Of a DNA stretch of 64,000 nt, positions 4,132-64,000 are shown piece by piece. This DNA is from a virus (taxonomy: Duplodnaviria; Caudoviricetes), in the IMG/VR virus record IMGVR_UViG_3300033121_002344, positions 3,888 through 67,887 of that record. One strand, given 5' to 3'. Position 1 is the first letter of the stretch; each line of letters opens with the position of its first letter. The notes beneath the pieces were generated by a model, which was not told the DNA's origin, made no database searches, and worked only from the letters and a program-made list of their open reading frames with translations. The position numbers were made by a program, and so were the translations under genes.

Positions 4132-4180
4132 GGGCGGATCTTTGGCAGACCCGGGCCAGGCCGGCAAGACCTGGCCCTAA

Positions 4181-4192
4181 CAACCCGGGTTG
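4181..4192. repeat. Dispersed palindrome copy 1 (TAA-CAACCCGGGTTG-CTT)
   Basis: Exact 12-bp core, 1 nt past the sheath stop. Confidence 0.95.
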
Positions 4193-4193
4193 C

Positions 4194-5897
4194 TTAGACG
4201 GAGGTCTCGATCGTCACCGTCTCCCCGACCTGCGCCTGGAAGACGATCTGGTCCATCGAGGCCAGCGTCTTCACCTTCCCGATCAGCACGAAGATCCCCA
4301 GGGCCTCCTGGGCCTCCGAGTTGCCGCTCTTGCTGTCGAGCAGGAAGTCCGCGATCCGCTGACGGGCCGTGTTCTCCGGGCTGAGCAGGCCGTCCAGGAA
4401 GCTGTAGACCTCCCCGACCAGGCTGTCCTTCCGGTCCGGCACCCCGAGCTTCTTGACGTACGGGGCCATGATGGCCGCCACCGAGTCCTCGACGTAGTCC
4501 CGCATCCGCCGCCGGGCGATCGGAGCGTTCGTCAGGTCGGCCGTCACCCCGCTCTGGAAGACCCACTTCCCGATCGACGGGTCGTAGCGGAGCGCCGCGA
4601 TCCCCGCGGCCTTGAAGAGCTCGTAGTCGCTCTCCTCGAAGGCCGTCGGGAGGCCGGTTGTCGTGAGACCCGGCTCCAGGCGCCGCAGCCCGTAGCCCAG
4701 GAAGTCGGTCTCCTGGCCCGGGTTCTCTTCCGGGTTCAGCTGCGAGAGCAGGACCGCCATCGCGCTGTCCGCACCGAGCATCACGTTGCCGGTGAGGCTC
4801 GAGTTGAAGGCCGCGACGTCCGAGATGTACTGCTCGTAGTGGGGGTAGCAGAAGACGACCCGGTCCGTCCGGTTCGCCCCCACCCCACCGACCCCGCTCC
4901 CCGCCACGTAGCCGTCGCCCGTGTCGGTCGACCCGCGCGCATCCGCACTCACCGTCCCGAGCGGAGCCCTGAGGAGTGCCACCCGCCCGTAGCCAATCGC
5001 CGAGCTATCGATCGCGTTCGCCTTCAGGGCCGCCCGGATCGCCGCCGACTGCCGTGCCGAAGCGATGATTCCGATCATGCTCGTCGGGCTCGTCGCGTCG
5101 CTGTTCGGCTTCGTCGAGTCGATCGCCGTCGAGTAGGCCGCGTCGATCTCGCTGGAGGTGAGGGGCGTCAACGGATCGGTGTTCGCCGTGCTGCTGTCGA
5201 GCACACCCGTCGAGCAGGCCACGACGATGCTCGGCAGCGACGTCCCCGCCCCGATGCCGGCGCGCGCGAGATCGGTCGAGTCCACCTGCGTGACGTCCCC
5301 GACCGCGTTCTCCGCCACCCCTTGGGTGCTGTAGACCGGCACGCCCGTGACCGTCCGCGTGGAGTAGCTGGTCGCCGTCGACGAGTAGGCGCTGTGCGCC
5401 GCCGTCGTCAGGCTCGTTCCCGCCGCGATCACCACGTCCGCCGAGAGCGCGAACTCGCGCGTCGTGTGCGCCGGGTCCCGAACCCGCGTCCCCGCCGGGA
5501 TCAGCAGATCCTTCGCGAGCGGGGTCGGGGTTCCGGTCACCTTCAGGGTGATGCCTTCGGCGAGATCGAGGTCCGCCCGCACCAAGACGATGCGGCTGAA
5601 GCTCTTGCCCTTCAACCAGCAGAAGGCGTTGCCGTTCCCGTAGCGGTTGACGTCGAAGCCGAGCGGGTCGCTCACCGAGCCGCTGAAGCCCCCGAAGGCC
5701 CGGATCGTCTGGTCGCCCTCGACCTCCGTCGGGGTGTTGAAGGGGCCCTTCGACCACTCCCCGACGAGCGCCAGGATGCCGCTCAGGATGCCGCCGAAGA
5801 CCCCAGGCGGGTTGAGATCCACGACCGTCACGCCCTCGATGGCGTTGATCTGGGCGGTCGTCGGAAAGTTGGAGAAGCGCCGGAAGAAGCCTGCCAC
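4194..5897 (-). CDS. Contractile tail sheath protein
   Basis: 567 aa; N-terminal EGVTVVD...LVGEWSKGPFNTPTEV and C-terminal RRMRDYVEDSV...YSFLDGL sheath motifs; GGAGG SD. Confidence 0.9.
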   Translation of the reverse strand: MAGFFRRFSNFPTTAQINAIEGVTVVDLNPPGVFGGILSGILALVGEWSKGPFNTPTEVEGDQTIRAFGGFSGSVSDPLGFDVNRYGNGNAFCWLKGKSFSRIVLVRADLDLAEGITLKVTGTPTPLAKDLLIPAGTRVRDPAHTTREFALSADVVIAAGTSLTTAAHSAYSSTATSYSTRTVTGVPVYSTQGVAENAVGDVTQVDSTDLARAGIGAGTSLPSIVVACSTGVLDSSTANTDPLTPLTSSEIDAAYSTAIDSTKPNSDATSPTSMIGIIASARQSAAIRAALKANAIDSSAIGYGRVALLRAPLGTVSADARGSTDTGDGYVAGSGVGGVGANRTDRVVFCYPHYEQYISDVAAFNSSLTGNVMLGADSAMAVLLSQLNPEENPGQETDFLGYGLRRLEPGLTTTGLPTAFEESDYELFKAAGIAALRYDPSIGKWVFQSGVTADLTNAPIARRRMRDYVEDSVAAIMAPYVKKLGVPDRKDSLVGEVYSFLDGLLSPENTARQRIADFLLDSKSGNSEAQEALGIFVLIGKVKTLASMDQIVFQAQVGETVTIETSV

Positions 5898-5917
5898 GTT
5901 CGATACCTCCTGGGCGC

Positions 5918-6583
5918 TTAGCGTCCGCCCTCGACCTCATCTACCACGCCGCGGAATCTCGGGGACAGCGCCGGAGCCGTCCGCACCACGCAGTGCTGCA
6001 TCCGACCCGTCACCTCCAGCTGCGCCAACCACCGGTTTCGCTTCACCGTCTCCGCCGAGTCGAGCAGCTGGATCCCGCCCAGGCTGAAGCGCGCCTTCCG
6101 CCGGTAGTAGCTCTCGACCTCCACCAGCCGGCCAAGCCGCGTCCCCGACGAGGTCGCGGTCGGGAGCTCGATGAAGAGGTCCTCGGCCGCCCCCAGGATC
6201 GCGTCCCGCTGGGCCCGGCTCTTCCCCCGCACCACCACCAGGAAGGTCCCCACCCACTCCCCCAGCGCCACCAAGACCCGCCCGCCCGTGCCGTCGGTCG
6301 TCCAGGTGTCGTCCAGGTACCGGGGCCCCAGGTCCGACTCCTCCTCGGTCAGCTTGTCGGGCAGCACCGCCGCCGCCGGCACCATCCCGTTCTCCGAGAG
6401 CGCCCGCTTCTCGAAGTCCGCCCAGCTGTCGTGGATGGCCTCGGTTGGCATGCGCTCCGGGGTCGCCGTCGCCGGGTAGCTCCACTCGAGCTCCCCCAGG
6501 AGAGACGCGAGCGCGCCCCCCATCGCGCCGCGCGCATCCCTCGTCTTCTGGAACGGGTACCGCTCAGGGTCCTGTGGAAGCAT
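5918..6583 (-). CDS. Probable tail terminator/completion protein
   Basis: 221 aa just upstream of the sheath; SD present; function from synteny. Confidence 0.55.
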   Translation of the reverse strand: MLPQDPERYPFQKTRDARGAMGGALASLLGELEWSYPATATPERMPTEAIHDSWADFEKRALSENGMVPAAAVLPDKLTEEESDLGPRYLDDTWTTDGTGGRVLVALGEWVGTFLVVVRGKSRAQRDAILGAAEDLFIELPTATSSGTRLGRLVEVESYYRRKARFSLGGIQLLDSAETVKRNRWLAQLEVTGRMQHCVVRTAPALSPRFRGVVDEVEGGR

Positions 6584-6586
6584 CCC

Positions 6587-7279
6587 TCACCTCACCGGCG
6601 TGGCCGGCTTCATCCGGAGCTCCTGCTCCAGGTTCTTCTCGAAGGCCTCGCGGATCTTCGGCGCCGCCCGCCCCAACACATGCAGGCCCGGGCGCGCCGT
6701 CCGAGCCGCCTTCCGGCTGATCGCCATCGCGACCCTGACCGCCTCCGCCGGGTCCTGGACGTTCAGCTTCCGCCGCACCCACTGCGCCAAGGGCGCGATA
6801 GGGATCGGGGCCGGCCGCCGCCCCTCCTCGATCACCCCCGCCTTCACCGGTGGGTTCGGGCTCGAATAGAAGATCCCGCTCCCATCGGGCAGCGCCTCGT
6901 CGCGCCACGAGGCCTTGTAGTCGCCCGTGTCCACCGGGGCCCGGTACCCCGCGGGAGCCGGCCGGGGCGCCGCTGAAGCCCCACCCGCCCCCTTCCGGGC
7001 CCTCTTCGGCCGACCCTCCTTCGGGCGGAGCCGCTTCAAGAGCCGCCGCACCTTCGTCCCCAGCCCCACCGGCTTCGGCGGGTTCTTGACCACCGGCCGC
7101 CGAGGGAGGCTGGGAGGCCCGCCCCCCTCCCAACCTCCCCCGGCGATCGACCACTGGATCCACCGGTGCGCGTCCATGGCGAGCGTCCGCCGGATGGCCC
7201 GGGTCATCGCCCGCCGGTCGTTGGCCGCCAGCCGCACCATCAGCGGGGCCAGGAGCTTCAGGCTGATCGGCTCATCCAA
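6587..7279 (-). CDS. HK97 gp10-like neck/tail-completion protein
   Basis: RAPVDTGDYKASW and GVIEEG motifs; TTG start overlaps the upstream stop. Confidence 0.65.
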   Translation of the reverse strand: MDEPISLKLLAPLMVRLAANDRRAMTRAIRRTLAMDAHRWIQWSIAGGGWEGGGPPSLPRRPVVKNPPKPVGLGTKVRRLLKRLRPKEGRPKRARKGAGGASAAPRPAPAGYRAPVDTGDYKASWRDEALPDGSGIFYSSPNPPVKAGVIEEGRRPAPIPIAPLAQWVRRKLNVQDPAEAVRVAMAISRKAARTARPGLHVLGRAAPKIREAFEKNLEQELRMKPATPVR

Positions 7280-7931: not shown

Positions 7932-7932
7932 C

Positions 7933-8361: not shown

Positions 8362-8400
8362 CTGCGAAGGATGGATCGAACGCCACCCGGGTGGCTAGCT

Positions 8401-12378: not shown

Positions 12379-12390
12379 CAACCCGGGTTG
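12379..12390. repeat. Dispersed palindrome copy 2 (TAA-core-CTT)
   Basis: Exact core, intergenic. Confidence 0.95.
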
Positions 12391-13424: not shown

Positions 13425-13436
13425 CAACCCGGGTTG
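13425..13436. repeat. Dispersed palindrome copy 3 (AAA-core-CTT)
   Basis: Exact core just past the stop at 13443. Confidence 0.95.
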
Positions 13437-21009: not shown

Positions 21010-21021
21010 CAACCCGGGTTG
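21010..21021. repeat. Dispersed palindrome copy 4 (TAA-core-CTT)
   Basis: Exact core 2 nt past the stop at 21024. Confidence 0.95.
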
Positions 21022-22420: not shown

Positions 22421-23191
22421 TCACCGGCTCCGGAGATTGCCGATCGGGGAGGCCGCGGAGGCGATCACGTTCGCGTACTCCTCGGCCGCCGACTTCGCGA
22501 ACCAGGTCGCCATCACCGTGTCGGCCTCGCCGGCCTGCGGGTAGGTGGAGAACTCCCGGTTGAGGACGCACCACGGGCAGCTGTGGCCCGGGGGATGGGA
22601 GGCGAACTCGTCCGCCGGCACCACCCAGGCTCCGTTGTGGAACTCCACCTGGAGGGACCGCAGCCCGAGGGTCGCGTCCACCTTGTTGGCGCCCGTCGTG
22701 GTCGCTTCGACCTTCGCCCAGAAGTCGAAGCTCCCGGGCAGCGCCTGGATCCACTCGATGATGGCGTTCTGGTAGCCGTTGTTCTCCACCCGGAAGACGA
22801 GCGGTCGGTAGAGCTCCTCCACCTGCTGCAGCTGAAGGGCCGTCTCGTGGGACCGCCAGGCTCCGCGCCGGACCTCGACGACGTGCCGCCGCCGGGTGGA
22901 GGGGTTGAGCTTCAGGACCACGATGGCGTTGCCCTTGCGCTTCGCCCCGGAGAGGTCGACGCCGACGATCGCCGGCCAGCTGTTCCGCTGGAGCTCCCCG
23001 ATCGAGACGCCGTGGACGAGGGCCTTGGGCCAGCTGGGAAACCAAAGCTCGTCGTCGACCAGGGCTTCGAGCTCCACGATCCGCCGGTAGGTGCGGTCGT
23101 CCTGAGCCTGGAAGGCTTCGAGCTCCTCCTTCCCCCACTTCTCCCCCCAGAGAGGGATCGACCGCAGCCGGACCGGGACGCCTGCACTCAT
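22421..23191 (-). CDS. terL: Terminase large subunit, nuclease (RNase H-like) half
   Basis: PLWGEKWGKEEL, IVGVDLS, FRVENNGYQ, EFSTYP...DTVMA; no Walker motifs; start uncertain (23191-23236). Confidence 0.8.
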   Translation of the reverse strand: MSAGVPVRLRSIPLWGEKWGKEELEAFQAQDDRTYRRIVELEALVDDELWFPSWPKALVHGVSIGELQRNSWPAIVGVDLSGAKRKGNAIVVLKLNPSTRRRHVVEVRRGAWRSHETALQLQQVEELYRPLVFRVENNGYQNAIIEWIQALPGSFDFWAKVEATTTGANKVDATLGLRSLQVEFHNGAWVVPADEFASHPPGHSCPWCVLNREFSTYPQAGEADTVMATWFAKSAAEEYANVIASAASPIGNLRSR

Positions 23192-23241
23192 CGGCCCGGA
23201 GGGTGGCCGAGCGCGCACCCCGCGCGCAAGAGGCAAGCGGG

Positions 23242-28288: not shown

Positions 28289-28300
28289 CAACCCGGGTTG
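28289..28300. repeat. Dispersed palindrome copy 5 (TAT-core-CTT)
   Basis: Exact core, intergenic, next to an SD. Confidence 0.95.
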
Positions 28301-31068: not shown

Positions 31069-31674
31069 TCAACCCGGGTTGTTTGCGCTCGCCAGCATCC
31101 CCTCGATCTCCGCCAGCCGCGCGAGGAGCTTCGCCTTCTCGGCGAGGAGCGCTTCGCGCCCAGCCTCCCCGACCTGGCGGAGCCGGCGGATCTCGGCCAG
31201 CCAGTCGGTGACCCGCACCGACCGGAGGACCACCGACCCGACCTCCAGCGACTCCGACCAACGCTCGACCTCGATCGGCTCGTCCTGGTTCTTCGCCAGC
31301 TGCTCGGTGAGCGTTCGATCGAGCGCCGCGATCCGCAGCTGCCGACCGATCTCGCTCGCGTCATCGCCGTCCTCGATCCGCCGCGCAACACCCATCGCTT
31401 CATCGCGGTCGAGCCGCGTGACCCGCAGCCCCTTCGCGTCCCGCCACACCAGCGGGAAGAGGTCCTTCTTGTTCCCCTTCCGGTCGACGTCCCGCTCCGC
31501 GTAGAGCCCCGGCTCGTCCACGAGCTCCTCGGTCATCTCGCCCCGCTTCCCGGAGCGTCGCCCGATGAAGGAGAGCGCGAGCCCCCACTTCGGGTCACGG
31601 CCCGTCACGCGAGCCACGTACTGTCCGGTGTGCCCGTAGGCTGCCTCCGCGTAGAGACGAATCGTGTTGCTCAT
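31069..31674 (-). CDS. Hypothetical protein
   Basis: 201 aa; ends NNPG* inside the palindrome. Confidence 0.65.
   Translation of the reverse strand: MSNTIRLYAEAAYGHTGQYVARVTGRDPKWGLALSFIGRRSGKRGEMTEELVDEPGLYAERDVDRKGNKKDLFPLVWRDAKGLRVTRLDRDEAMGVARRIEDGDDASEIGRQLRIAALDRTLTEQLAKNQDEPIEVERWSESLEVGSVVLRSVRVTDWLAEIRRLRQVGEAGREALLAEKAKLLARLAEIEGMLASANNPG
31070..31081. repeat. Dispersed palindrome copy 6 (TAT-core-TTT)
   Basis: Exact core; supplies the TGA stop of 31069-31674. Confidence 0.95.
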
Positions 31675-36282: not shown

Positions 36283-37127
36283 CAGAGCTCGACGGGCTCG
36301 ACCGCGATGCTTCGGCGCGCCAGCGCTCGCTCAAGTCGTGGGAGCGGGTAGTCGTCCCGGGCGTTGTAGACGTACTGCTCGATACAGGTCTTGTCCTTCG
36401 AGACGGGCTGCCAGAGGACGCACCAGGCCGGGCGCGCCCGCAGCTTGTGGGTGTGGTCCTCGTTGTGCCACGGGTTGGCGGTCCAGATGACCCGACCCGT
36501 CGGTTCCAGCCGGCTCATCCACACCGAATCAACCCGGGTTGTTACCGCCTCCCGGCGCTCCTCGGTGAGGCTGTTCTCGCGCGAGACCGTGTCGTCGAAG
36601 ATCAGGAGGTCGGCTCGACCGCCGGTGCCGGCGCTCATCACCCCGTAGGCTTTGACGGTGGGGTCGACCGAGAAGCCGGGGCGCTCCAGGAGGATCTCGT
36701 GCTGCGTGAACTCCTCACCTTTGCGGCGCGTCGTCCGCTTGCCGGGCCGCACGTTGGGGAAGGTGGCCCGGTAGGCTGCGTTCTTCGAGATGAGCTCCGC
36801 CACCGCCTCGACCCGCTCGGAGGCGACGTCATCGACCGAGCTCACCACCTTCACCCGCAGCGAGGGGTCACGCCCGATCTCCCAGGCGATGCGGGCGATC
36901 AGGCCGATCGTCTTCCCGTGGTTGACGGGCGCGATGAAGGCCGGGTGGAGGCCGTGGCTCCAGCAGTATTCGAGGTGGACCTGCCAGGTGACGTGGAGGG
37001 GCGCCATGGCGAGCGGTCGATCGTCCTTGTCCCGCATGACGAACGGGAAGAAGCGATCGAAGCGCCCCCGGGCCTCCTCGGCCCGCATCGCGATCGCGTA
37101 CCGGGCCGCCGTGGCGAGACCGCTCAC
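36282..37127 (-). CDS. terL: Terminase large subunit, ATPase half
   Basis: APVNHGKT (Walker A), GTGGRADLLIFDD (Walker B), WTANPWHNED (motif III); ends at 281 aa; GGAGGAG SD. Confidence 0.85.
   Translation of the reverse strand: MSGLATAARYAIAMRAEEARGRFDRFFPFVMRDKDDRPLAMAPLHVTWQVHLEYCWSHGLHPAFIAPVNHGKTIGLIARIAWEIGRDPSLRVKVVSSVDDVASERVEAVAELISKNAAYRATFPNVRPGKRTTRRKGEEFTQHEILLERPGFSVDPTVKAYGVMSAGTGGRADLLIFDDTVSRENSLTEERREAVTTRVDSVWMSRLEPTGRVIWTANPWHNEDHTHKLRARPAWCVLWQPVSKDKTCIEQYVYNARDDYPLPRLERALARRSIAVEPVEL
36530..36541. repeat. Dispersed palindrome copy 7 (AAT-core-TTA)
   Basis: Exact core inside the TerL ATPase gene (encodes TTRVD). Confidence 0.95.
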
Positions 37128-39113: not shown

Positions 39114-39358
39114 CGACCCGTCTCCTTCCGCAGCCGCTCGACCTCCGCGATGAGGGCGCGCGCCGCGTCGAAGCTCTGCAGCGGGAAGACCGGCTCGCCG
39201 ACGGGGTGCCCGTTCGGGCAGGGTCGCTCGGCGCAGACCGGGTCATCGCAGAGGCGGTCGTTGCAGGGAGCCTTGACCATCCCGGTCCCGCCGCACGGGC
39301 AGGCCGCGAGCTCGATGGAGCGCTTGAAGGCTTCGAGGTCGAGTGGGGTCCGACTCAT
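39110..39358 (-). CDS. Small Cys-rich protein
   Basis: CPCGGTG...C...C...CP; GAAGAT box. Confidence 0.55.
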   Translation of the reverse strand: MSRTPLDLEAFKRSIELAACPCGGTGMVKAPCNDRLCDDPVCAERPCPNGHPVGEPVFPLQSFDAARALIAEVERLRKETGR

Positions 39359-40266: not shown

Positions 40267-40321
40267 AGCCCCTATCGTCACCGCTCGTGTCCCCCTGAAG
40301 ATCGGTGGGTAGGGGACGAAT

Positions 40322-40333
40322 CAACCCGGGTTG
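40322..40333. repeat. Dispersed palindrome copy 8 (AAT-core-CTT)
   Basis: Exact core 2 nt past the stop at 40336. Confidence 0.95.
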
Positions 40334-40335
40334 CT

Positions 40336-41079
40336 TCAGTGGACCGCCTGGCTGGCCGCCGTGAGCTCCAGGAGCTTCTGGGCACGCACCGTGAGGGCGC
40401 CCGACTTCAGGTCCTCGATGGCCTTCCAGACCTCGTCCTCGCTGCCCAGCGCCGCCACCGCCCGCTCGCTGTCGAAGGTCTGACCCTGGACGCCCAGGAT
40501 CGCCTCAGGCTCGCCGAGGCGCTTCCGTTCGAGCTCCATCGAGCGCCCGATGATGGTGGTGGCCGCCTGGCCGATCCACGCCAGCTTCCGGACCGTCGAG
40601 ATCGTCTCCCGGAGGCTCATCTGCTCGCCCTCGCCCTCTTGGAGGCGCGCGCTCAGCTTCTTGATGGTCGGCACCATCGCGCTACTGAGCTCGGAGGCGA
40701 TGCCGAGCAGCCCCATCCCGCTCTGCATGGCAGCGCGGACCGCCCGCGCCTCACGGGCCTTGTGGTCGAGGGCATCGCGCCGCGCCCGCGCCTCCTCTTC
40801 ACGCGCCGCCAGCGCATCGCGGGCCTTCTGGGCTTCCTCTTCCTGGAGGTGCGCGCGGACCTGCGCCTTCTCGTCCTCGAAGAGATCGCGCACCGAACGG
40901 TTCACCTGGGGCGCCCAGATGGGCCGCGTGATCTGTGGCCAGCCCTTCTCCCACACCTGTTTGACGACCCGGTAGTCGATCGAGAGCTTGCGGGAGACGG
41001 CCCTGACGTTTCCGTCCTCCTCGCGCAGCGCCTCTTTGATGGCGTTGAAGAGCTCTAGGGTGGGTTTTCGTCCAGCCAT
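40336..41079 (-). CDS. Probable terminase small subunit
   Basis: N-terminal HTH (GNVRAVSRKLSIDYRVVKQVW), coiled coil, MELERKRLGEP oligomerisation-like segment. Confidence 0.6.
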   Translation of the reverse strand: MAGRKPTLELFNAIKEALREEDGNVRAVSRKLSIDYRVVKQVWEKGWPQITRPIWAPQVNRSVRDLFEDEKAQVRAHLQEEEAQKARDALAAREEEARARRDALDHKAREARAVRAAMQSGMGLLGIASELSSAMVPTIKKLSARLQEGEGEQMSLRETISTVRKLAWIGQAATTIIGRSMELERKRLGEPEAILGVQGQTFDSERAVAALGSEDEVWKAIEDLKSGALTVRAQKLLELTAASQAVH

Positions 41080-44735: not shown

Positions 44736-45364
44736 CGACCTCCCTCTGAATCAACCCGGGTTGCTTGCTGGGCCCGGATCCGCTCTTCGACCGCCCGCGC
44801 CTTCGCGGCATGGCGCCGCCGAGCCCCACTGGGCCGGCGCTCCGGGGTCCGCGGGAAGCGGGCCGAGAGGCGAGGCCTGAGCAGGATGGGTGCCCGGAAG
44901 AAGGTGGTGAGGGGGACGACCGAATCCGCCACCTGCCGGTGCCAGTAGAGGAGGGTCGAGCGCGAGCCGTCGGTGCGACCCGAGAGGCGCCGCCCGACCT
45001 CGATCTGCCGATCGAGAAGGCCGAGGGTCCGGGTCAGGGCGTCGACCAGACCTTCGAGACCCAACAGCGAACGCTCCGCCTCCTTGACGTACTCGATCAC
45101 CCGCGCGAGCTCGGCCCGGTTGCCGACCCGCTCCTTCACCAGGACCTCGTAGATGAAGTCCTCCAGCAGGCAGGCCAGGTGCTGAACACGACGGTGGTGG
45201 GGCCGCATCAGGCGGTCCCGGTGGCGCTCGCCGGGGCCGGGGAAGTGGACGGCGCGCCGTCGGTACCAGAGCTTCTTCTCCAGCCGGCGCTTCCGCCGCC
45301 GGCCGTCCGCCTCGCCGACGGGTGGTTGGGGTCGAGCTCGGATCGCGTTGAGGTCGATGGGCAT
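44732..45364 (-). CDS. Hypothetical basic protein
   Basis: 210 aa; overlaps both neighbours. Confidence 0.5.
   Translation of the reverse strand: MPIDLNAIRARPQPPVGEADGRRRKRRLEKKLWYRRRAVHFPGPGERHRDRLMRPHHRRVQHLACLLEDFIYEVLVKERVGNRAELARVIEYVKEAERSLLGLEGLVDALTRTLGLLDRQIEVGRRLSGRTDGSRSTLLYWHRQVADSVVPLTTFFRAPILLRPRLSARFPRTPERRPSGARRRHAAKARAVEERIRAQQATRVDSEGGR
44752..44763. repeat. Dispersed palindrome copy 9 (AAT-core-CTT)
   Basis: Exact core in the 3' end of 44732-45364, next to the next gene's SD. Confidence 0.95.
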
Positions 45365-45723: not shown

Positions 45724-47046
45724 TCAGGCCCGCTTCGCCTTCTTGCCGGACCGCTCCTCCCAGCGCTGGACGATGGCATCGCAGTAGCCGGGCGCGAACT
45801 CGATCGCCCGACAGCGTCGCCCCATCTCCTCGGCCGCGATCACCTGCGAGCCCGAGCCCGCGAACGGCTCGAAGCAGACCTCGCCTTCGAGGGTGTGGAG
45901 GTCCATGGGCCGGCTGAAGAGCGCCACCGGCTTCTGGGTCGGGTGGATGCGGTCGTTCTCGCGCCCCACCTCCCAGACGGTGTCGAGGTCCCGCTTCCCG
46001 AACCACCGTGAGCGCCGCCCCCGGATCCATCCGTAGAGGGCCGTCTCGTGCCGCCAGTGGAAGTCGCCCCGCCCCATGATGAGGCTCGGCTTCACCCAGA
46101 CGATCTGCCGGTGGATCAGGAGGTCGATCGTCTTCACGGCCTCGATGAAGGGAAGGCTCTCCAACAGCACAGGGTGCCAGATGTAGATCGCCGGCCGCTC
46201 GCCGAAGTGGGGCTTGATGGCCGCCAAGAAGGCCGCCAAGAAGGCCTGAAGGGCCGCCCCCTGGAGACCGTCGTTCGCGATCGGGTCGTAGTCGGGGATC
46301 TTGCCGCCCGTGGCCTTCGCATTCGACTCCCTGATCTCGTCGTAGTTGACCCCGTAGGGCGGATCGGTGGCGAGCAGGTCCGCCTTCGCGCCCTCCATGA
46401 CCCGCGCGACGTCGCCGGGCACCGTCGAGTCCCCGCAGAGCAGCAGGTGGTCACCGAGCCGCCAGAGGTCGCCCTTCTTGGTCACCGGGTGCTTTGGCGG
46501 TACCGGGACCTCGGGCTCGGCCGCCCGCTCGGCCTTGCGCTGCTCCCGCTGGAAGTCCGCCAACAGCTGCTCGACGTCCTTCTGCTCGAACCCCGAGCCC
46601 GCCCGCAGCCCGCCCTCGAGTCCCTGGTAGAGGTCGGAGAGCATCGTCGCGTCCCAGCCCCCGAGCTCCACGAGCCTGTTGTCCGCCACCAGGTACGCCT
46701 CCGCCGAGGCCTCGCTCTCGAACGAGACCCCGCAGGTCACGGGCGCCAGCCACTGCCCCTCGGGCCCGACGAGGATCCGCTTCGGGGGCTCGCGCCCGGA
46801 CGCCTTCCAGGCCAGCAGACGATCGAGCCGGCCGTGGCCCGCCACCAACCGACCCGTCCGCTCGTCCCGCAGCATCGGCTGCACGTAGCCGAACTGCTCC
46901 AAGGAGACGTCGAGCTTCTCGTCCGCGTGGAGCTTTGGGTTTCGTGGCCACCGCTGGATCTCGTCGATGGCGAAGTACTGGATGGAGATCCGCTCCGGGG
47001 CCGGGGCCGGCGCTGGAGCCGCCGCGACCGCGCGACGACGGCTCAC
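45724..47046 (-). CDS. ParB/Srx N-terminal domain fused to an N4/N6 DNA methyltransferase
   Basis: PRNPK...LVAGHGRL...ADNR; DLLATDPPY; HPTQKP; FEPFAGSGS. Confidence 0.9.
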   Translation of the reverse strand: MSRRRAVAAAPAPAPAPERISIQYFAIDEIQRWPRNPKLHADEKLDVSLEQFGYVQPMLRDERTGRLVAGHGRLDRLLAWKASGREPPKRILVGPEGQWLAPVTCGVSFESEASAEAYLVADNRLVELGGWDATMLSDLYQGLEGGLRAGSGFEQKDVEQLLADFQREQRKAERAAEPEVPVPPKHPVTKKGDLWRLGDHLLLCGDSTVPGDVARVMEGAKADLLATDPPYGVNYDEIRESNAKATGGKIPDYDPIANDGLQGAALQAFLAAFLAAIKPHFGERPAIYIWHPVLLESLPFIEAVKTIDLLIHRQIVWVKPSLIMGRGDFHWRHETALYGWIRGRRSRWFGKRDLDTVWEVGRENDRIHPTQKPVALFSRPMDLHTLEGEVCFEPFAGSGSQVIAAEEMGRRCRAIEFAPGYCDAIVQRWEERSGKKAKRA

Positions 47047-47768
47047 TGGCCGCCCCCGAGGTACCGCCGGCAGATCTCCGCGATCGCCTCCGGGTTCGTC
47101 TTCGCCCCACCGGCCTTCGCCTGCTTGATGGCCCGCTGGACGACGGCGTTCTGGTCGGCGGAGAGCGCCAGGTTGAGAGAGCCCGCCTTCGGGTCGTCGG
47201 AGCCCTCGCCGCCCGCGCCTTCGCCCGTCGAGACCTCGAAGGTGACCCGCTTCTTGCCCTCGGCCGCCAGGAGGAGCTCGTCGATCGCCTCCTGGGTGAA
47301 GCCGGTCAGGTCCTCACGGTGGGTGGGCTCCAGGGAGTTGAAGATCTCCGCCAGCCCCTTCGCGTTCCAGCCGCCGAGCTCGGTCGAGCGGTTGTCGAGG
47401 AGCAGGTAGCGCTCGGCCTGCTCCTCGGTGGCGAACGAGACCCCGAAGAGCACCGGCACCAACCACTCCCCGCCCTTCCGCTCGACCCGGATGCGCCGCG
47501 GAGGCTCGGCGCCCGACCGCTTGAGCTCCTCCAAGATCTCCAGCCGGCCGTGGCCCGCCACCAGCCGGCCCGTCCGCTCGTCCCGCAGCAGCGGGACCGT
47601 GAACCCGTACTCGGCCATGGAGCGCCGCAGGAGGCCCTTGTCGTGCTCCTTGGGGTTCCGGGGCCATCGCTGGAGCTCCGAGAGCGGCAGGTACCGGAGC
47701 GTGAGCCCGGGGTCGGGCTTCGGCGCTGGCTTGGAGGAGGTGGTTCGGGAGGAGGTTCGGGTGGTCAC
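47043..47768 (-). CDS. ParB/Srx N-terminal domain protein
   Basis: WPRNPKEHD...RDERTGRLVAGHGRL...LDNR; start re-called to GTG 47768. Confidence 0.85.
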   Translation of the reverse strand: MTTRTSSRTTSSKPAPKPDPGLTLRYLPLSELQRWPRNPKEHDKGLLRRSMAEYGFTVPLLRDERTGRLVAGHGRLEILEELKRSGAEPPRRIRVERKGGEWLVPVLFGVSFATEEQAERYLLLDNRSTELGGWNAKGLAEIFNSLEPTHREDLTGFTQEAIDELLLAAEGKKRVTFEVSTGEGAGGEGSDDPKAGSLNLALSADQNAVVQRAIKQAKAGGAKTNPEAIAEICRRYLGGGQ

Positions 47769-47817: not shown

Positions 47818-48258
47818 TCAACCCGGGTTGCTTCGAGTCCAGCAGAGGGCCGCGCAGGCGAGCGTCTTCTTCTTGGTCTCGAACTTCGGGGCACCGCAGT
47901 GGCAGCGCTCAACCTTCCGCGACCGGTCCCAGGCCTCCCGCATCCGGACGATCACCCGCTCGACGATCGCCTCCACCTCTCCGACCCGGTTGACCCGCGT
48001 GACCTTCACGATCCCGCGCTCCTTGCCGTCCGCCGCCCTGTAGACCGCCGAGACCCGGATCGCGTCCTCGGCCACCGGCCGCGCCGAACCCCCCACCACC
48101 GAGCTCCAGACCATCACCCGGATCCCCGGGGTCACCTCGCGCCAGAAGACGCGCTCGCCGTGGCGAGGCTCTTCGACGAAGCCTGCCTTCAGGACACGGG
48201 CCACTAGGCTCTCGCCAAGCAGCCGACGGGATTCGGGGGAGGTCGGTTCGTACTTCAC
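47818..48258 (-). CDS. Hypothetical protein with a C-terminal Cys motif
   Basis: 146 aa; ends SNPG* inside the palindrome. Confidence 0.6.
   Translation of the reverse strand: MKYEPTSPESRRLLGESLVARVLKAGFVEEPRHGERVFWREVTPGIRVMVWSSVVGGSARPVAEDAIRVSAVYRAADGKERGIVKVTRVNRVGEVEAIVERVIVRMREAWDRSRKVERCHCGAPKFETKKKTLACAALCWTRSNPG
47819..47830. repeat. Dispersed palindrome copy 10 (TAT-core-CTT)
   Basis: Exact core; supplies the TGA stop. Confidence 0.95.
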
Positions 48259-56436: not shown

Positions 56437-56448
56437 CAACCCGGGTTG
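56437..56448. repeat. Dispersed palindrome copy 11 (AAT-core-CTT)
   Basis: Exact core 2 nt past the stop at 56451. Confidence 0.95.
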
Positions 56449-56450: not shown

Positions 56451-57479
56451 TCAGTCGACCTTCTGCTTCGGGCAGTGGATCTTGAAGCCCTCGCCGCGGG
56501 GCAGGACCTCGACCACGAACTTCGCGTCGCCGATCCGGAAGCGACCCTGGCCCGCGCCGCGGTCCCAGTTGGTCCACTTGCCCTCGAAGACCACCGTCCC
56601 CATGTCCAGCGTGGCCTTGACCACCACCTTGTTCTCGTGACCGCGCCGCTCGGGGCGCTCGCGCTCGGAGACCTTCTCGCCGTTCGCCTTCTTGGCCGCG
56701 AAGTCGGCCTTGCGCTGCTCGTGGACCTTGTTGGCGAGGGCCGCCTTTGAGGGCTTCTCGACCTTCGCCTCCTCGGTCAGCTTCGCGCGGATCTCCGGGT
56801 CGGGGATCTTCGCCAGCAGCTTGAGGTGGCTGATCGTCAGCCCGGCGATCGACTTCTCGTCCGGGTAGGCGCGCGCCACCCGGATGAAGTCGACCCCGGC
56901 CGTCCGCGAGAAGCCGCACTGCTTCTCCACGTAGTCGGCGAAGCTGTCGAACTTGCCGGCCCAGAGGTTCTTGTCGTGGATCTCCAGGAGCCGCCGGCCG
57001 ATCTCCCAGCCGTTCTTCGCGAGGTTGTCGCGGAGCGACCGGACCTCGGTGGTGAGGGCAGCGAGGCGCGCCGCCACCTCGCCGGGGTTCGTGGTCGGCT
57101 CGACCTTCCCCTTGTCCGCCCCCGCCCCGACGTCGATCACCGGACCGCCGTCCGTCCCGACCACCGCCAGCTTCGCCGCCGCACCCTTGGCCTTCTTCTC
57201 GGCCTTCGCGCTCTTGGCCGCCGCCTGCTCCGCCAATTCCTCGTCGTCGAACTCGAACTTCGCCGCGCAGCCCGGGCAGTGGGTGAGGTCCTTGGTACCC
57301 GGGGACGGGAAGCCGCAGACCGTGCATTCGAGGACCTCGTCGTTCGGGTAGAGGCCGGCCAGCTTCGCCGCCAGGCTCGTGGCGAGCTCGGTCGGGGTCC
57401 ATCCGCCTTCGGCCGGAACCTTGTGCTTCTTGGCGACCTTCTGCAGGTGTTCGGGGTTGAGCTTGGTAGCGGTCAGCAT
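56451..57479 (-). CDS. Zn-ribbon plus DUF3102-like helical DNA-binding protein
   Basis: CTVC...CPGC; WEIGRRLLEIHDKNLW...SFADYVEKQCGFSRTAG. Confidence 0.6.
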   Translation of the reverse strand: MLTATKLNPEHLQKVAKKHKVPAEGGWTPTELATSLAAKLAGLYPNDEVLECTVCGFPSPGTKDLTHCPGCAAKFEFDDEELAEQAAAKSAKAEKKAKGAAAKLAVVGTDGGPVIDVGAGADKGKVEPTTNPGEVAARLAALTTEVRSLRDNLAKNGWEIGRRLLEIHDKNLWAGKFDSFADYVEKQCGFSRTAGVDFIRVARAYPDEKSIAGLTISHLKLLAKIPDPEIRAKLTEEAKVEKPSKAALANKVHEQRKADFAAKKANGEKVSERERPERRGHENKVVVKATLDMGTVVFEGKWTNWDRGAGQGRFRIGDAKFVVEVLPRGEGFKIHCPKQKVD

Positions 57480-58138
57480 GACGTCGTCTCCTCCAGGATC
57501 GGGTTGATGAATGCGAGGTTGATCAGGGTCGAGTCCTTCGAGGGCACCCGCTCACCCCCGATCATCGCGAGAAAGATCGTGTACTGCCGGGGCCCGAGGG
57601 CCGCCCGGGCGCGGTCGATCAGGAGCCGGAGCTCGGCCGCGTGCTCCTGGGTCGGCTCGCAGGCCAGCGCCAGCTGCAGCCCCGCCGGCTCGTGCGGGTC
57701 CTCGTGCTCGGGAAGCTCGTCGAGGAGGACCGGCATGTCGCCGTGGAACCGCTCGCGCCGCACGTACCGGTAGACCTCGTGGTCCATCGCGCGCCCCACC
57801 TTCCGGTGGACGTACTCCAGGAGGTCGAAGCGGGGCCGGGGCGCGCGCCCCTTCTCCAGGAGCTCGGGGTGCTGGCGCGCCACATGGGCCTCGTAGGCCT
57901 CCTCCGTGCGCGCCCCCCGCCGACACCCCGGGCAGCGGAGATGGTAGCTCTGGACCGCCTCCCAGGCCGCCAGGAGGCCCAGCTGTTCGAGGTCCTGGAG
58001 CTCCAGCGGTAGCCGAGCCCATGAAGCGCGCCCGTAGAAGAACCGCGCCATCCGTTGAAAGTAGCGGCTCTGCTCGGCCGCGAACTTGGTGAAGCTGATC
58101 TCGCCCGCCCGTAGGCGGGTCACGTCCTGCAGGTTCAA
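57473..58138 (-). CDS. Sigma70-family factor: region 2 with an inserted C2H2 zinc finger, truncated region 4
   Basis: QDLEQLGLLAAWEAVQSY / FDLLEYVHRKVGRAMDHEVYR; CPGC-x12-H-x4-H insert; TTG start with GGGAGG SD. Confidence 0.7.
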   Translation of the reverse strand: MNLQDVTRLRAGEISFTKFAAEQSRYFQRMARFFYGRASWARLPLELQDLEQLGLLAAWEAVQSYHLRCPGCRRGARTEEAYEAHVARQHPELLEKGRAPRPRFDLLEYVHRKVGRAMDHEVYRYVRRERFHGDMPVLLDELPEHEDPHEPAGLQLALACEPTQEHAAELRLLIDRARAALGPRQYTIFLAMIGGERVPSKDSTLINLAFINPILEETTSC

Positions 58139-59749: not shown

Positions 59750-59761
59750 CAACCCGGGTTG
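59750..59761. repeat. Dispersed palindrome copy 12 (AAT-core-CTT)
   Basis: Exact core in the helicase 5' leader. Confidence 0.95.
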
Positions 59762-59793
59762 CTTCCGGGATCGTGCTCCGTGCTCGATGACCG

Positions 59794-59823
59794 ACAATTA
59801 AAGCGTGACCCGCGCGCTGTCAA
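59794..59823 (-). promoter_or_regulatory. Host-type promoter (TTGACA-16-TTAATTGT)
   Basis: Consensus -35; same -10 block as the accessory-region copies. Confidence 0.75.
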
Positions 59824-60308
59824 CCCGCTTTCTTCTCCTTCTTCGCTTCTTCGACGACCCACCCCGAAGACTTGAATTGGCCGTGGGTGTACCGCTCGAT
59901 CCGAGCCGCGAGGGCCAGGCTCGGCAGCATCGTCCCGGCCGCCAGTCGGTTGAGGGTCGAGACCGAGGTCTCCAGAGCCTCGGCCACATCCGTCTTCGAC
60001 CGGCCGTCCAGCCACCGCGCGAAGGGGTGCTCGGGGTTCGTCTGCGGCCGACCCGGGGACCGCTCGATCCCCAGCTTCCCCAGCGCCGAGCCCTCGATCT
60101 GCCGCGCCCGCTCCCGGGTGACCGGGGGGACGAGGGCCCTGGCGACTTCGTCGAGGGTCCGCTGCTCCTTCCCCAGGAAGCGCTGCTGGAGCACTTCGAG
60201 CTCCCGGTCGGAGAGCTCCAGGACCTTCTTCGGGCTCTTGAGGGCCCGCTCGACCTGGGTTCGGACGTCAGCCCGCGAGGGGCGCTGGTTCTTCTTCGAA
60301 TTACGCAT
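59820..60308 (-). CDS. Two-domain regulator: RpoD-like sigma region 4 plus Xre/Cro HTH
   Basis: LSDRELEVLQQRF...RTLDEVARALVPPVTRERARQIEGSALGKL; SKTDVAEALETSVSTLNRLAAGTMLPSL. Confidence 0.8.
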   Translation of the reverse strand: MRNSKKNQRPSRADVRTQVERALKSPKKVLELSDRELEVLQQRFLGKEQRTLDEVARALVPPVTRERARQIEGSALGKLGIERSPGRPQTNPEHPFARWLDGRSKTDVAEALETSVSTLNRLAAGTMLPSLALAARIERYTHGQFKSSGWVVEEAKKEKKAG

Positions 60309-60337
60309 GGTGCGCGCTCACAGGTAGCTTCACGCAC

Positions 60338-61366: not shown

Positions 61367-62163
61367 TCGCTTCGTTCCTCGCCGAGCGCGAGGACGCCCT
61401 GGCTAAGCCGCCGCGCCGCCGCCTCGCAGAACCGCTCGTCGATCTCGATCCCGACCGCGCGCCGCCTCATCTCCCGCGCCGCCACCAAGGTCGAGCCCGC
61501 GCCCATCGTCGGGTCGAGGATCAGCCCTCCGACCGGGCACGAGTACGAGATCAGCGGACGCAGGATCCCGAGAGGCTTCTGGGTGGGGTGGTCCGCCGAG
61601 CCGTGGCAGTTTCGCGCGTAGACGACGGACCGCATGAGCCGCGGACCTCCATCGCGCGACACGTAGGCGCTGTCCCCGATGTTGCCGGTGTGGGTGGGGC
61701 GCGTCTTCCGGCGCACGGTCCGGGCCGTCGCATCGGCGGTCGTCACCGGGGCCTTGTAGACGTCCTCCCAGCGAGCCGTCGACCGGTAGAGGTGGAGCGC
61801 GTGCTCGTGGACGCGACGGAACCGGTCGGTGTGGAAGCCGCTTCCGTTCTGCTTCTCCCAGACGAGGTCCTGCGAGACCCTCCAGCCGAGCGCCGCGATC
61901 TGATCGGCCTGCGCCATGAACATCCGCAGCGAGCCGAAGCACCAAACGGAGCCCGCGTCCCGCACGGTGGGGCCGGCCGCACGAAGCCACGACAGGTCGC
62001 GCTCGTCCCAGGCGAGGGACGTGTCCCCGTAGGGCGGGTCGGCGAGAAGCAGATCGACGCTTCCGCCCGCGACCGGAGCGGCGAGGGACATCCAGTCGGC
62101 GAGGACGTCCCGGCAATCGCCGAGGTAGATCGTGATGCCGCCGTGCTCGTAGTAGGGCTTCAT
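61363..62163 (-). CDS. Orphan N4/N6 DNA methyltransferase
   Basis: GDCRDVL, LADPPY, HPTQKP, LDPTMGAGST; start re-called to ATG 62163. Confidence 0.9.
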   Translation of the reverse strand: MKPYYEHGGITIYLGDCRDVLADWMSLAAPVAGGSVDLLLADPPYGDTSLAWDERDLSWLRAAGPTVRDAGSVWCFGSLRMFMAQADQIAALGWRVSQDLVWEKQNGSGFHTDRFRRVHEHALHLYRSTARWEDVYKAPVTTADATARTVRRKTRPTHTGNIGDSAYVSRDGGPRLMRSVVYARNCHGSADHPTQKPLGILRPLISYSCPVGGLILDPTMGAGSTLVAAREMRRRAVGIEIDERFCEAAARRLSQGVLALGEERSE

Positions 62164-63551
62164 TCGGTCGGCCCGTCCTCGCGCTCGAAGATGCTCAGGT
62201 CCACCGCCGCCTCGTTGTCGATCAGGTACTTCGCGCCCTCGAAGTCGTAGCGGACGCAGAAGGGGAAGGGCCCACGGCGCTGCTTCAGGCAGTAGAGGTC
62301 GAGGGTGTCGCGCATGTTCCGCCGCCGGCTCTTCGGGGCGCGGATCATCGGCCGGTCGACGCCGAAGATCAGGTCGAGCTCCTCCTCGAAGGCCCCCGCG
62401 TTCTTGATGTGCTCCAGCGACGGAGGCCCCTCGACGCCCTGGCGGTTGAGGTGGTGGACCAGGCAGATATGGACCCCGTAGCGCTTCGCGATCGACTCGC
62501 GGATGCGGATCAGCGCCTGGGTGACGGCCTGCTCGCGTCGATCGCGGAGCGCCTTCCCGACGACGTCGAAGACGAAGAAGCCGAAGCCCTCCTGGGAGAG
62601 GGCCGCCACCACGCTCTCGACGTGGTCGAGGTTCCGTTCGTTCTGGTCGGCCCACTTGTCGGTCGACTGCTCCAGGTGAATAAACGGGTTCTCTTCGATG
62701 ACGAAGCAGTCGTTGCGGAAGAGCTCGGCCGCGTCTGCGATCCGCAGCTTCTCCTGATCGGAGAGGTGCTTGGTGTGCTTTGTGTACCGCTCCGCCGGGA
62801 TCCCCGCCTCGGCCGCGATCATCGAATCGAGGTAGTCGTCACGCCCCATCTCCCAGGCCCCCAGGTAGGTCCGCTTCGAGTTGCGAACCCGCCAGCGGAC
62901 GAGGTGGGAGACGAAGGCGCTCTTGCCCATGCCGGGCCGGCCGACGATCAGGCTCACCGTGGCCGGCGCGAAGCCCGCGCCCAGCATCGAGTCGAGGATC
63001 ACGTTCCCGCTCGGCTCGAAGACGGAGCCGACGATCGACCGCATCCGCATCGTCTCGTAGTAGGCGTCGACGACCGCACCACCCCGCTGGATGTTCCGGA
63101 GGGCGTTGCGGCCGACTCGATCGCCGGCCACCCGCAGCGCACCCGCGAGCGCATCACCGGGCACCTTCGGGTCCTCGCAGAGCTCGACGAGCTTCGGTAC
63201 GTGGTCCCGGAGGAGCTCGAACTTCGCCGCGTCGAGCCGCAGTCGGTCGAGGTGGTAGTCGACGTTCCGGTTCGGCTGGTACTCGGCCTCGATGGCCCGC
63301 AAGTACGCAAACCCGCCGAAGTCCGCGCCGCCGACGAGCGTCTGGAAGGTGTCCTCGCTCCAGGCCATGCCGGCGCGGTCGAGGGCCGTGAGGCCGCGCA
63401 GGATGATCCGGTGGCGCTGGTCGCCGAAGTCGTTGGGCCGGATCGAGACCATGAGCCGCCGCCGCTCCTTGGCGTCGTGGATCATCGTCGCCAGCACGAC
63501 CCGCTCGTTCGCGAGGTCGAACTCCACCACCCTGCCACCGCGGTCCGCCAC
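62160..63551 (-). CDS. DnaB-like replicative helicase
   Basis: ERVVLATMI N-domain, GRPGMGKS, HHLNR, IKNAGAFEEELD; start re-called to GTG 63551. Confidence 0.9.
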   Translation of the reverse strand: MADRGGRVVEFDLANERVVLATMIHDAKERRRLMVSIRPNDFGDQRHRIILRGLTALDRAGMAWSEDTFQTLVGGADFGGFAYLRAIEAEYQPNRNVDYHLDRLRLDAAKFELLRDHVPKLVELCEDPKVPGDALAGALRVAGDRVGRNALRNIQRGGAVVDAYYETMRMRSIVGSVFEPSGNVILDSMLGAGFAPATVSLIVGRPGMGKSAFVSHLVRWRVRNSKRTYLGAWEMGRDDYLDSMIAAEAGIPAERYTKHTKHLSDQEKLRIADAAELFRNDCFVIEENPFIHLEQSTDKWADQNERNLDHVESVVAALSQEGFGFFVFDVVGKALRDRREQAVTQALIRIRESIAKRYGVHICLVHHLNRQGVEGPPSLEHIKNAGAFEEELDLIFGVDRPMIRAPKSRRRNMRDTLDLYCLKQRRGPFPFCVRYDFEGAKYLIDNEAAVDLSIFEREDGPTE

Positions 63552-63615
63552 GGGCTGATCTTCGCGCAACGGGCCTCGTCCCGACAGCAGGAGGCCCGTC
63601 GGGCCAGCTGCCGTA

Positions 63616-64000
63616 TCAACCCGGGTTGCTTCGTCGCCGGTCGCGGAGCTCTTCGAGCTCGGCCTCGGTGAGGAGGTCCCGCATCTCGCCGGCCCGCCAG
63701 GCGTCGAGCACACGCTGCACCCGGCCGCCGATGACGTCCGGGTCGAGGTGCGGGAACGGAGGCCCGGGCCACCGCTCGCCCTTCTCCTTCCGAGCCCGCC
63801 ACCAGCGAGGCACCGTCGAGAGCGCGAGCCGGAACTCCACACGGTCGGCCGCGAAGGTGCGGTTGATCGTCGTGTTGATGAGCCGCCAGAGCCGCTCCCG
63901 GTCCGCCTTCGTTCGGGGCCAGGCCGTCTCGTCCTCGACCCCGAAGAGCCGGTGGATGTTCGACCGCCAGGCCGCACAGAACTCCGCCGCGTTGATCGCC
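63616..64000 (-). CDS. 3' part of a gene upstream of the helicase (possible initiator/loader)
   Basis: Frame open from the window edge to TGA 63616; ends SNPG*. Confidence 0.55.
   Translation of the reverse strand, partial: AINAAEFCAAWRSNIHRLFGVEDETAWPRTKADRERLWRLINTTINRTFAADRVEFRLALSTVPRWWRARKEKGERWPGPPFPHLDPDVIGGRVQRVLDAWRAGEMRDLLTEAELEELRDRRRSNPG
63617..63628. repeat. Dispersed palindrome copy 13 (TAT-core-CTT)
   Basis: Exact core; supplies the TGA stop. Confidence 0.95.

Follow-up and report, generated by a model that had tools for sequence, protein, structure and literature searches.

The DNA analysed here is a window of 64,000 nucleotides, corresponding to bases 3888-67887 of a 67,887-bp IMG/VR virus record (CheckV completeness, 84%). 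A 12-bp palindrome, CAACCCGGGTTG, is repeated along the whole window, and this dispersed array, together with the protein that may read it, is the subject of this report. The phage of the window is referred to as G000; 16 related IMG/VR records were obtained, in full or in part, and the relatives are labelled G002-G016. According to a gene call based on the GC content of third codon positions (GC3), essentially every gene is carried by the minus strand, and the window is transcribed from right to left. The GC content of the window was 70%, slightly below the value of about 72% given in a preliminary description of the sequence. Following the direction of transcription, family searches identified replication genes for a DnaB-like helicase, a Toprim primase, a second helicase, a family-B DNA polymerase and a RecA-like protein. 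After them come a ParB-methyltransferase fusion and a split large terminase, and the portal, a MuF-like protein, the major capsid protein and the tail sheath are last in order. Judged by its genes, G000 is a myovirus-like phage.

Neither the tyrosine integrase family (PF00589) nor the serine recombinase family (PF00239) had a match in G000 and four relatives, three of which are at least 90% complete, and the controls were matched. The ParA-type ATPase family PF13614 was likewise without a match in G000 (84% complete), G002, G003, G005 and G006, and it matched in 14 of 14 control genomes. With all three families lacking a match, G000 looks like a lytic-type uncultured phage. No near relative of it was found among cultured phages, and its portal protein was only approximately 30% identical to those of Ralstonia phages.

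In the window, 13 exact copies of CAACCCGGGTTG were found, compared to 0.00 expected from 100 dinucleotide shuffles, and an order-0 model gave an expectation of 0.008 copies in the whole record. All of the 13 copies lay exactly where the preliminary description had placed them. A scan of the full record, which that description had proposed, turned up a 14th copy at record position 325, outside the window, with inverted flanks. No copy with one mismatch was present in the window, and the sole copy with two mismatches was the symmetric variant CCACCCGGGTGG (8383-8394, unstranded), which sits in a 39-nt gap right behind a TAG stop codon and may be a diverged 15th site. The copies were spaced 1.0-8.6 kb apart with a mean of 5.2 kb, in line with the earlier figure of about 5 kb over the same range.

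Since the genes lie on the minus strand, the motif is properly written along the transcribed direction, as AAG-core-WTW. Read in this way, it is (G)AAG-CAACCCGGGTTG-(ATA/ATT/TTA/TTT), a near-palindrome of 18-20 bp with a perfect 12-bp core, and the 18-bp spelling of the G000 site is AAGCAACCCGGGTTGATT. On the opposite strand, the flanks reported in the preliminary description were recovered, with WAW to the left of all 13 copies and CTT to the right of 11 of them. The asymmetry was confined to flank position +/-7, where G occupied position -7 in 11 of the 14 sites and A or T occupied position +7 in 13 of the 14; a full 18-bp palindrome was found at none of the 14 sites. Twelve of the 13 scorable sites were co-oriented with transcription (binomial p = 0.003), the site at 36530 being ambiguous. 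The single polarity claimed for all copies was thus seen at these 12 sites, but the site at 36530 does not decide for either direction and the flanks of the 14th copy, which falls outside the window, point the other way. The hexamer CCCGGG occurred 99 times compared to 89 times expected; it is not avoided, and the idea of a restriction site was dropped.

All 13 sites of the window are assigned to the minus strand, and they are described here in the order of transcription. S1 (63617-63628) lies approximately 55 nt upstream of the start of the DnaB-like helicase gene, and the stop of the upstream open reading frame (ORF) is the motif's own TGA, which consists of the final two bases of the core and a following A. 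Three ORFs stop in this manner, the others being those upstream of S4 (47819-47830), which stands directly upstream of a gene for a ParB-fold protein with a ribbon-helix-helix (RHH)-like region, and of S8 (31070-31081). S2 (59750-59761) is located between a gene for a protein with sigma region 4 and Xre-type domains (sigma4-Xre) and a helicase gene, 58 nt downstream of the sigma4-Xre stop, with a TTAATT -10-like box about 40 nt upstream and a 10-bp GC hairpin followed by a Shine-Dalgarno (SD) sequence downstream. S3 (56437-56448) was found 2 nt past the stop of a DUF3102-like gene and upstream of the DNA polymerase gene, and S6 (40322-40333) 2 nt past the stop of a TerS-like gene (40336-41079). 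At S5 (44752-44763), the upstream ORF runs through the motif and a GGGAGG SD follows 7 nt later; the same SD follows S9 (28289-28300) after 3 nt. S10 (21010-21021), upstream of the portal region, lies 2 nt past the upstream stop, with a GAGGAT box and an ATG 8 nt on. S11 (13425-13436) is positioned 6 nt past the upstream stop, and S12 (12379-12390) 18 nt past a stop, with a GGGGAGAGG SD 3 nt later. S13 (4181-4192) lies 1 nt past the tail-sheath stop and is then followed by the strongest downstream hairpin (-28.7 kcal/mol). S7 (36530-36541) is situated within the ATPase half of the large terminase subunit, where it is coded as V-T-T-R-V-D-S.

Taken together with the copy outside the window, 12 of the 14 sites were at gene junctions, and at 10 of the 14 a GC3-supported upstream ORF ended between 6 nt before the core and the TGA at the core's end. 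The next start codon was 13 to approximately 190 nt from the site. An SD followed five G000 sites, within 3-8 nt at four of them and about 30 nt later, after the hairpin, at 59750; other sites had promoter-like elements or GC-rich hairpins downstream. Hairpins of -20 kcal/mol or stronger were found within about 45 nt at 6 of the 14 palindrome junctions versus 10 of the 64 others (Fisher p = 0.03), and the sites therefore tend to mark the ends of transcription units. The stretch around S7 aligned without a gap to four terminase homologues, which carry other residues there. Since there is no insertion or deletion relative to the homologues, the alignment argues that the DNA word itself, rather than a small insertion, is kept by selection even inside the essential terminase gene. 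In G002, one site lies within the DNA polymerase gene.

The position of the sites relative to promoter-like sequences was also examined. A GA(A/T/C)GAT box was found exactly 6-7 nt before the ATG or GTG at approximately 25-30 gene starts, for example at 40279, 34057, 32887 and 45702. The box, with A at -11 and T at -7, fits the -10 elements of leaderless transcripts, and a related box, GGGAAGATG, has 15 copies in G002. Five sigma70-like promoter candidates, TTGACT/TTGCGT-N17-TTAATT, were located on the minus strand at approximately 59790, 29040, 27028, 25547 and 23900, followed by GT and then, 7-8 nt later, by a start codon. The palindrome stood upstream of such boxes, overlapped them, stood downstream of them or had none nearby. 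The palindrome was rejected as a promoter: a GANGAT box followed 5 of the 14 palindrome junctions compared to roughly a third of genes, and there was no -10 element 17 nt past the TTGATW end. A promoter for a phage RNA polymerase or sigma factor was also rejected, as the distance to the start varied from 13 to approximately 190 nt and separate promoter-like motifs exist. An intrinsic terminator was set aside on account of a fold of -1.7 to -4.7 kcal/mol, an A/U-rich stem of 4-7 bp and the lack of a U tract. The motif did not fit the consensus sequences of IHF, DnaA and CtrA.

The preliminary description had proposed a scan of relatives and candidate hosts for the motif. The G000 spelling was found in none of the relatives, five of which were checked directly; instead, three of them carried palindromes of their own. 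In G002 (89 kb), the 16-mer GAGAACGCGCGTTCTC was found in 12 exact copies and 2 copies with one mismatch, compared to 3e-5 expected, at junctions where T+GA often makes up the upstream stop. In G011, a 34-kb fragment, five copies of CTAATCGATTAG were found, three of which supply the upstream TAA stop. In G003 (84 kb, 47% GC), five copies and one variant of GTTAAA-N4-TTTAAC (as in GTTAAAGCGATTTAAC) end 2-5 nt before an ATG. The central four bases were palindromic in three of the phages, and the asymmetric centre of G003 appeared as GCGA and as its complement TCGC, twice each. No palindrome array was found in the twelve further relatives (G004-G010 and G012-G016), some of which had non-palindromic promoter-like repeats instead.

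Several positions recurred among the array-bearing genomes. A site stood upstream of the DnaB gene in G000 and G003, just after the TerS-like gene in G000 and G011, just upstream of the MuF-like gene in G003 and G011, and after the g075 homologue in G000 and G002; in all four array-bearing genomes a site adjoined the terminase ATPase half. Compared on their sequences, the closest relatives have different palindromes in a similar layout, with the junctions partly shared. The array, its placement and its turnover between relatives are direct observations. The array-bearing records were those sharing the family-B polymerase replication module. No relatives were found when the G000 DNA polymerase was used as a single query, and an alignment of the polymerase as the query retrieved G002 and G003 only. 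Hundreds of metagenomic relatives with 58-68% identity were found for the capsid protein, some of them on metagenomic sequences of 82-104 kb.

Outside this group, a search of IMG/VR with AAGCAACCCGGGTTG gave single matches only, on 6 contigs. In genome and metagenome collections the motif occurred, among the matches listed and apart from overlapping palindromes, in chance-like singles; the exception among these matches was one motif pair 43 nt apart in a Sorangium genome. These matches neither point to a host nor argue against one.

Two relatives carried repeats of another kind. In G004 (L011 record), which is without a palindrome array, there were 7 copies of a minus-strand bipartite motif, GGTAAACC-N12-CCCTAAATAC-N5-8-ATG (e.g., at 35146, 38297 and 40570), a promoter-like element for leaderless genes. 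In the relative L017, AGCACAGTTCA(ACTTTTC) was repeated 8 times, about 63 bp apart, within 1.2 kb (5819-6975) as an iteron-like cluster.

We speculated that a phage-encoded, symmetric DNA-binding protein docks at the sites and acts at gene junctions, and to this statement as a whole we assign a probability of about 0.45. Its first part is the firmer one: the 14 copies are probably double-stranded DNA (dsDNA) docking sites for a single two-fold symmetric, sequence-specific protein encoded by the phage. Such a protein is favoured by the weak fold of the motif as RNA, the palindromic centres, the presence of both complements in G003, the variant copies without G-U compensation and the copy inside a gene. 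By analogy with KorB at its OB operators on RK2 and Noc at its NBS sites, the bound protein would mark the phage chromosome. Sitting at operon boundaries, it would act locally on transcription as a repressor or a roadblock, and through a Lys/Ala tail it might perhaps also organise the replicating phage DNA. The preliminary description had proposed a genome-wide array for a dimeric phage protein with sigma4-Xre as the best candidate; the palindromes of the relatives, the in-gene copy, the weak RNA fold and the G003 centre speak for the array, and the choice of binder was not supported, as described below. That the protein binds, that it does so as a dimer and that it functions in this way are inferences.

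The likeliest reader, put forward tentatively, is a 342-aa DUF3102-like protein (g006) encoded on the minus strand at 56451-57479, as indicated by Pfam, a hidden Markov model (HMM) search of the genome, a structural model and an alignment. The protein consists of a C-x2-C...C-x2-C zinc ribbon, a Lys/Ala-rich linker, a DUF3102-like domain and a small beta-rich C-terminus; the DUF3102 match had an E of 5e-4 in Pfam and 24.4 bits in the genome HMM search. Among the 16 relatives, homologues were found only in G002 and G003, which are near-complete and array-bearing. An AlphaFold2 (AF2) model of residues 125-342 had a mean pLDDT of 77.5, with approximately 90 in the helical core. When this model was submitted to Foldseek, the top rows were almost all ParB, Noc, Spo0J and SopB DNA-binding domains, with modest E values of 0.02-0.1; against the Noc-NBS complex 6y93, the TM score to the target was 0.63-0.68 with an E of 0.02-0.04. 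An independent VIA search placed the ParB-parS complex 6s6h first, with 107 aligned residues and a Z of 7.9, which falls in the uncertain range below 8. The next ranks were held by Spo0J, SopB, KorB, P1 ParB and VirB at Z 4.9-6.2 (KorB 5.5-5.7). The model thus suggests, consistently in both searches but with modest scores, that the DUF3102-like domain has a helix-turn-helix (HTH) DNA-binding fold of the ParB/Noc/KorB type. This predicted fold and the distribution of the homologues are what the analysis yields directly for the candidate. The preliminary description had listed the protein only for testing, and the ParB/Noc/KorB-like model together with the homologues confined to G002 and G003 raised it to the better candidate.

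The N-terminal CTPase domain of ParB was absent from the 56451-57479 protein, for which Pfam gave only the zinc ribbon and DUF3102, and the ParB-fold domains of G000 reside in separate proteins (47043-47759 and 45724-47046). The putative recognition helix differed among G000, G002 and G003. In the G002 homologue (L087 16162-17223), the linker is a long AEKPAK/AEKAAK repeat resembling the histone H1-like tails of bacterial nucleoid proteins. PDB sequence searches with three candidate readers gave no matches, and no clear repressor was found among the approximately 45 proteins searched with Pfam or PHROG.

Several observations weigh against a symmetric phage protein as the reader or against this particular candidate. 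A purely symmetric dimer leaves unexplained the asymmetric flanks (G at -7, A/T at +7) and the co-orientation of 12 of the 13 scorable sites with transcription. There is no single regulatory geometry, given that the position of the site relative to the promoter-like boxes varies. The fold matches are modest, and Foldseek E values of 0.02-0.1 and a VIA Z below 8 can reflect a common helical arrangement. The candidate shares its distribution among the relatives with the whole replication module, including DnaB, the primase, the DNA polymerase and others; it is inherited with this module, and its co-occurrence with the array is therefore confounded by lineage and amounts effectively to one clade. 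The homologues in G002 and G003 have no palindrome beside their genes. No binding evidence was found for DUF3102 proteins, a family that the literature mentions only in passing. Furthermore, with a record completeness of 84%, the gene for the true reader could lie in the portion that is absent.

The asymmetry of the flanks is also the reason why an RNA element was kept as the first alternative, since the dsDNA reading leaves it unexplained. The motif would then form a small hairpin in polycistronic transcripts, to which a phage protein would bind; it would work as a processing site, as a translational operator immediately before the SD or start codon, or, ahead of terminator hairpins, as an antitermination signal of the boxB type. 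Consistent with such a role, 12 of the 13 scorable sites run with transcription, the motif follows the stop codon and precedes the SD or start, the G003 motif ends 2-5 nt before the ATG, five G000 sites are followed by an SD within about 3-30 nt, and strong hairpins are often found downstream. However, the hairpin noticed in the preliminary description, which does exist, is very weak, with -1.7 to -4.7 kcal/mol versus a mean of -14 kcal/mol for random 45-nt windows. The loops CCGG, GCGC and UCGA are themselves palindromic, which RNA does not need; the asymmetric G003 centre is present as both complements, GCGA and TCGC; and the variant copies show no compensation of the G-U type. Cleavage or termination would do harm at the copy that sits within the terminase gene. 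Rfam and tRNA scans of the sequence found nothing, with no Rfam family at threshold. The boxB-like role suggested earlier is unlikely in view of the weak hairpin, the palindromic loop and the lack of an Rfam family, a comparison in which boxA and an N-like protein were not specifically searched for. Overall, we regard an RNA element as unlikely.

Still less probable is that the sites are signals for packaging, replication or recombination, used by a TerS-like protein or a replication initiator as multiple pac-like or loading sites. The protein in question is encoded on the minus strand at 40336-41079; by its sequence it has an N-terminal HTH followed by a putative coiled coil, and it looks like a small terminase subunit. 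Its gene lies directly upstream of the terminase gene in G011. A site adjoins terS or the ATPase half of terL in 4 of 4 array-bearing genomes, and the arrays are restricted to the subclade with the family-B polymerase replication module. Nevertheless, known pac sites, cos sites and origins are single clustered loci, to which 14 isolated palindromes bear little resemblance. The proximity to terS is only weakly surprising, because sites occur about every 5 kb and the proximity was noticed after the fact, and a homologue of the TerS-like protein was not found in G002. A small ORF of the Fis/NtrC HTH type in G002 (L088 39152-39247, within the region 39152-39305; HTH_8 E = 1e-8), which lies between two palindromes, was considered as a reader and rejected, as an in-frame TGA interrupts it; its only counterpart in G000 was a weak HTH_8 match inside the TerS-like gene.

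It is also improbable, to a slightly greater degree, that each phage mimics a sequence bound by a regulator or nucleoid protein in the host it infects. The spelling of the motif and the GC content shift with genome GC across the relatives (47-70%), as would fit different hosts, and the G002 core fits GAAC-N4-GTTC, which resembles the LexA box (Cheo box) of Gram-positive bacteria and actinobacteria. But the identity seen across all 12-16 bp goes far beyond what host regulons usually show, no genome with many copies was seen among the matches listed from the genome and metagenome collections, and twelve related phages lack an array.

About equally improbable as the reader is the product of 47043-47759 (minus strand), a stand-alone ParB-fold protein with a C-terminal RHH-like region that was identified from PHROG and the alignment and would work as an NTP-dependent, KorB-like clamp. 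The protein matched the PHROG 'ParB-like partition protein' (E = 2e-29), shared 42% identity with the N-terminal portion of the ParB-methyltransferase next to it, and has S4 directly upstream of its gene; a C-terminal strand-helix-helix, which the alignment suggests to be an RHH, is conserved in many homologues. Homologues, several with the same C-terminal region, were however also found in the array-less G006, G007, G008, G009, G010 and G015, and for this reason the protein was set aside as a minor candidate. No recurrent palindrome was found upstream of the homologous genes in the array-less relatives, the array-bearing G003 has no such stand-alone gene, and ParB-fold proteins and methylase fusions are common in phages (PMC12704722).

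The sigma4-Xre protein (59820-60308, minus strand), the best binder in the preliminary description, now appears a shade less probable again. Both of its domains are real (Sigma70_r4, E = 1.4e-8; HTH_3, E = 4.5e-5), the right half-site TTGAT(A/T) resembles a -35 hexamer, the flanks are asymmetric, and S2 lies 58 nt downstream of the gene stop; sigma region 4 would read the TTGATW end and the Xre HTH the other half. Yet, of 5.8 billion proteins searched, its one match was the protein itself; G002, G003 and G011, which have equivalent arrays, yielded neither a homologue nor a Sigma70_r4 or HTH_3 domain; and the gene slot is missing in G002, where the primase and the helicase adjoin. It therefore cannot be the conserved partner of the system. 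Moreover, two unlike HTH domains would not select a perfect 12-bp palindrome.

The least probable alternative is that the palindromes are recombination linkers at cassette boundaries, like the T4-type PeSL elements and without a dedicated binding protein: five sites, S5-S9, fall within the 24-45 kb region, where genes that have no homologue in the relatives abound, identical 18-mers could serve as microhomology and the Cluster O repeats have been linked to indels (PMC4351075), but sites also occur between conserved core genes (sheath/tube, DnaB, polymerase) and inside the terminase, and a motif that gives way to an entirely different spelling from one relative to the next cannot support exchange among them.

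Some further features of these genomes were noted in passing. The large terminase of G000 is made up of two genes 13 kb apart on the minus strand, one for the ATPase half (36282-37127; phrog_38 positions 258-473) and the other for the nuclease half (22421-23236; phrog_38 positions 485-683), and the relatives show the same split. A DNA methyltransferase gene with a DPPY motif (61367-62159, minus strand), which was not included in the GC3 gene call, adjoins the primase gene, and G000 has at least two methyltransferases. The 57473-58138 protein, described earlier as a sigma factor with a zinc finger, had no Pfam, PHROG or PDB sequence match, and its sole homologue among the relatives was found in G002 (34% identity). 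G002 (L087 7749-10028) also carries a DEAD/ResIII helicase gene with an intein and an HNH endonuclease.

We then compared the proposed docking of a symmetric phage protein at the palindromes with known systems. The Cluster O mycobacteriophages are the closest published description of the phenomenon. They carry 17-bp palindromic repeats, TGTTCGGNNNCCGAACA, with 34 copies in Corndog, for which the authors suspected a protein that binds as a dimer, without settling on a function (PMC4351075). As in G000, invariant inverted arms are present in many copies through a genome of about 70 kb, the copies lie in short intergenic gaps and also inside genes, and no repeated occurrence was found in host or other genomes (for G000, among the matches listed). 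In contrast, G000 has 14 copies, no free spacer, a strong coupling to stop codons and co-oriented flanks; and one spelling is common to the Cluster O phages, whereas the relatives of G000 spell theirs differently.

For the mechanism, the closest model, by analogy, would be KorB and its operators, of which 12 OB copies are present on the IncP plasmid RK2 (PMC11790492). The arrangement in G000 resembles KorB-OB, ParB-parS and Noc-NBS in that a palindrome of 12-18 bp occurs about a dozen times over a replicon of 60-90 kb. Like the OB operators, the sites lie near promoters, far from promoters and inside genes; the centre CCCGGG is the same as that of the Noc site; and the modelled structure of the candidate reader matches, with modest scores in the uncertain range, the DNA-binding domain of the ParB, Noc and KorB proteins. 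The candidate differs from ParB and KorB in having a zinc ribbon and a Lys/Ala linker in place of the N-terminal CTPase domain, and the phage differs from partition systems in that no ParA was found in the G000 record (84% complete). Because the candidate is without a CTPase domain and no ParA was found, the system does not belong to the ParABS/KorB family proper. It also departs from KorB and Noc in that G000 is a lytic-type phage in which no integrase or resolvase was found, and docking is here a conjecture.

The Cluster A stoperators are asymmetric 13-bp sites of temperate phages, bound by a monomeric two-domain immunity repressor (PMC6550527, PMC9283540). They resemble the G000 sites in being numerous, in lying in short intergenic gaps, in running with transcription and in varying in spelling between related phages. 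They differ in that the G000 site has a perfectly palindromic core, and neither an integrase nor a repressor module was found in G000; with a symmetric core and a search for lysogeny genes that found none, the array is not a stoperator system. The preliminary description had drawn on both stoperators and parS, and neither analogy holds in its defining features, the site being symmetric and no integrase, resolvase or ParA having been found.

Dispersed palindrome arrays in phages had already been described, among them in the Cluster O report of 2015. What is added here is that related phages swap the palindrome wholesale and keep the layout and a part of the positions, as would be expected for a co-evolving pair of protein and site. 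Also added are a word kept even inside an essential terminase gene and a concrete candidate reader of the DUF3102 family with a predicted ParB/Noc/KorB-like fold. One possibility, somewhat more doubtful than the identity of the candidate, is that a DUF3102-class protein without a CTPase domain or a ParA, together with its palindrome, constitutes a private 'address' that changes between related virulent phages and serves to mark, insulate or organise the chromosome in lytic growth. Binding by the candidate would give a function to a widespread family of phage proteins, and genome-wide control of the KorB/Noc kind, so far seen in plasmids and chromosomes, would extend to lytic phages that have neither the CTPase domain nor ParA.

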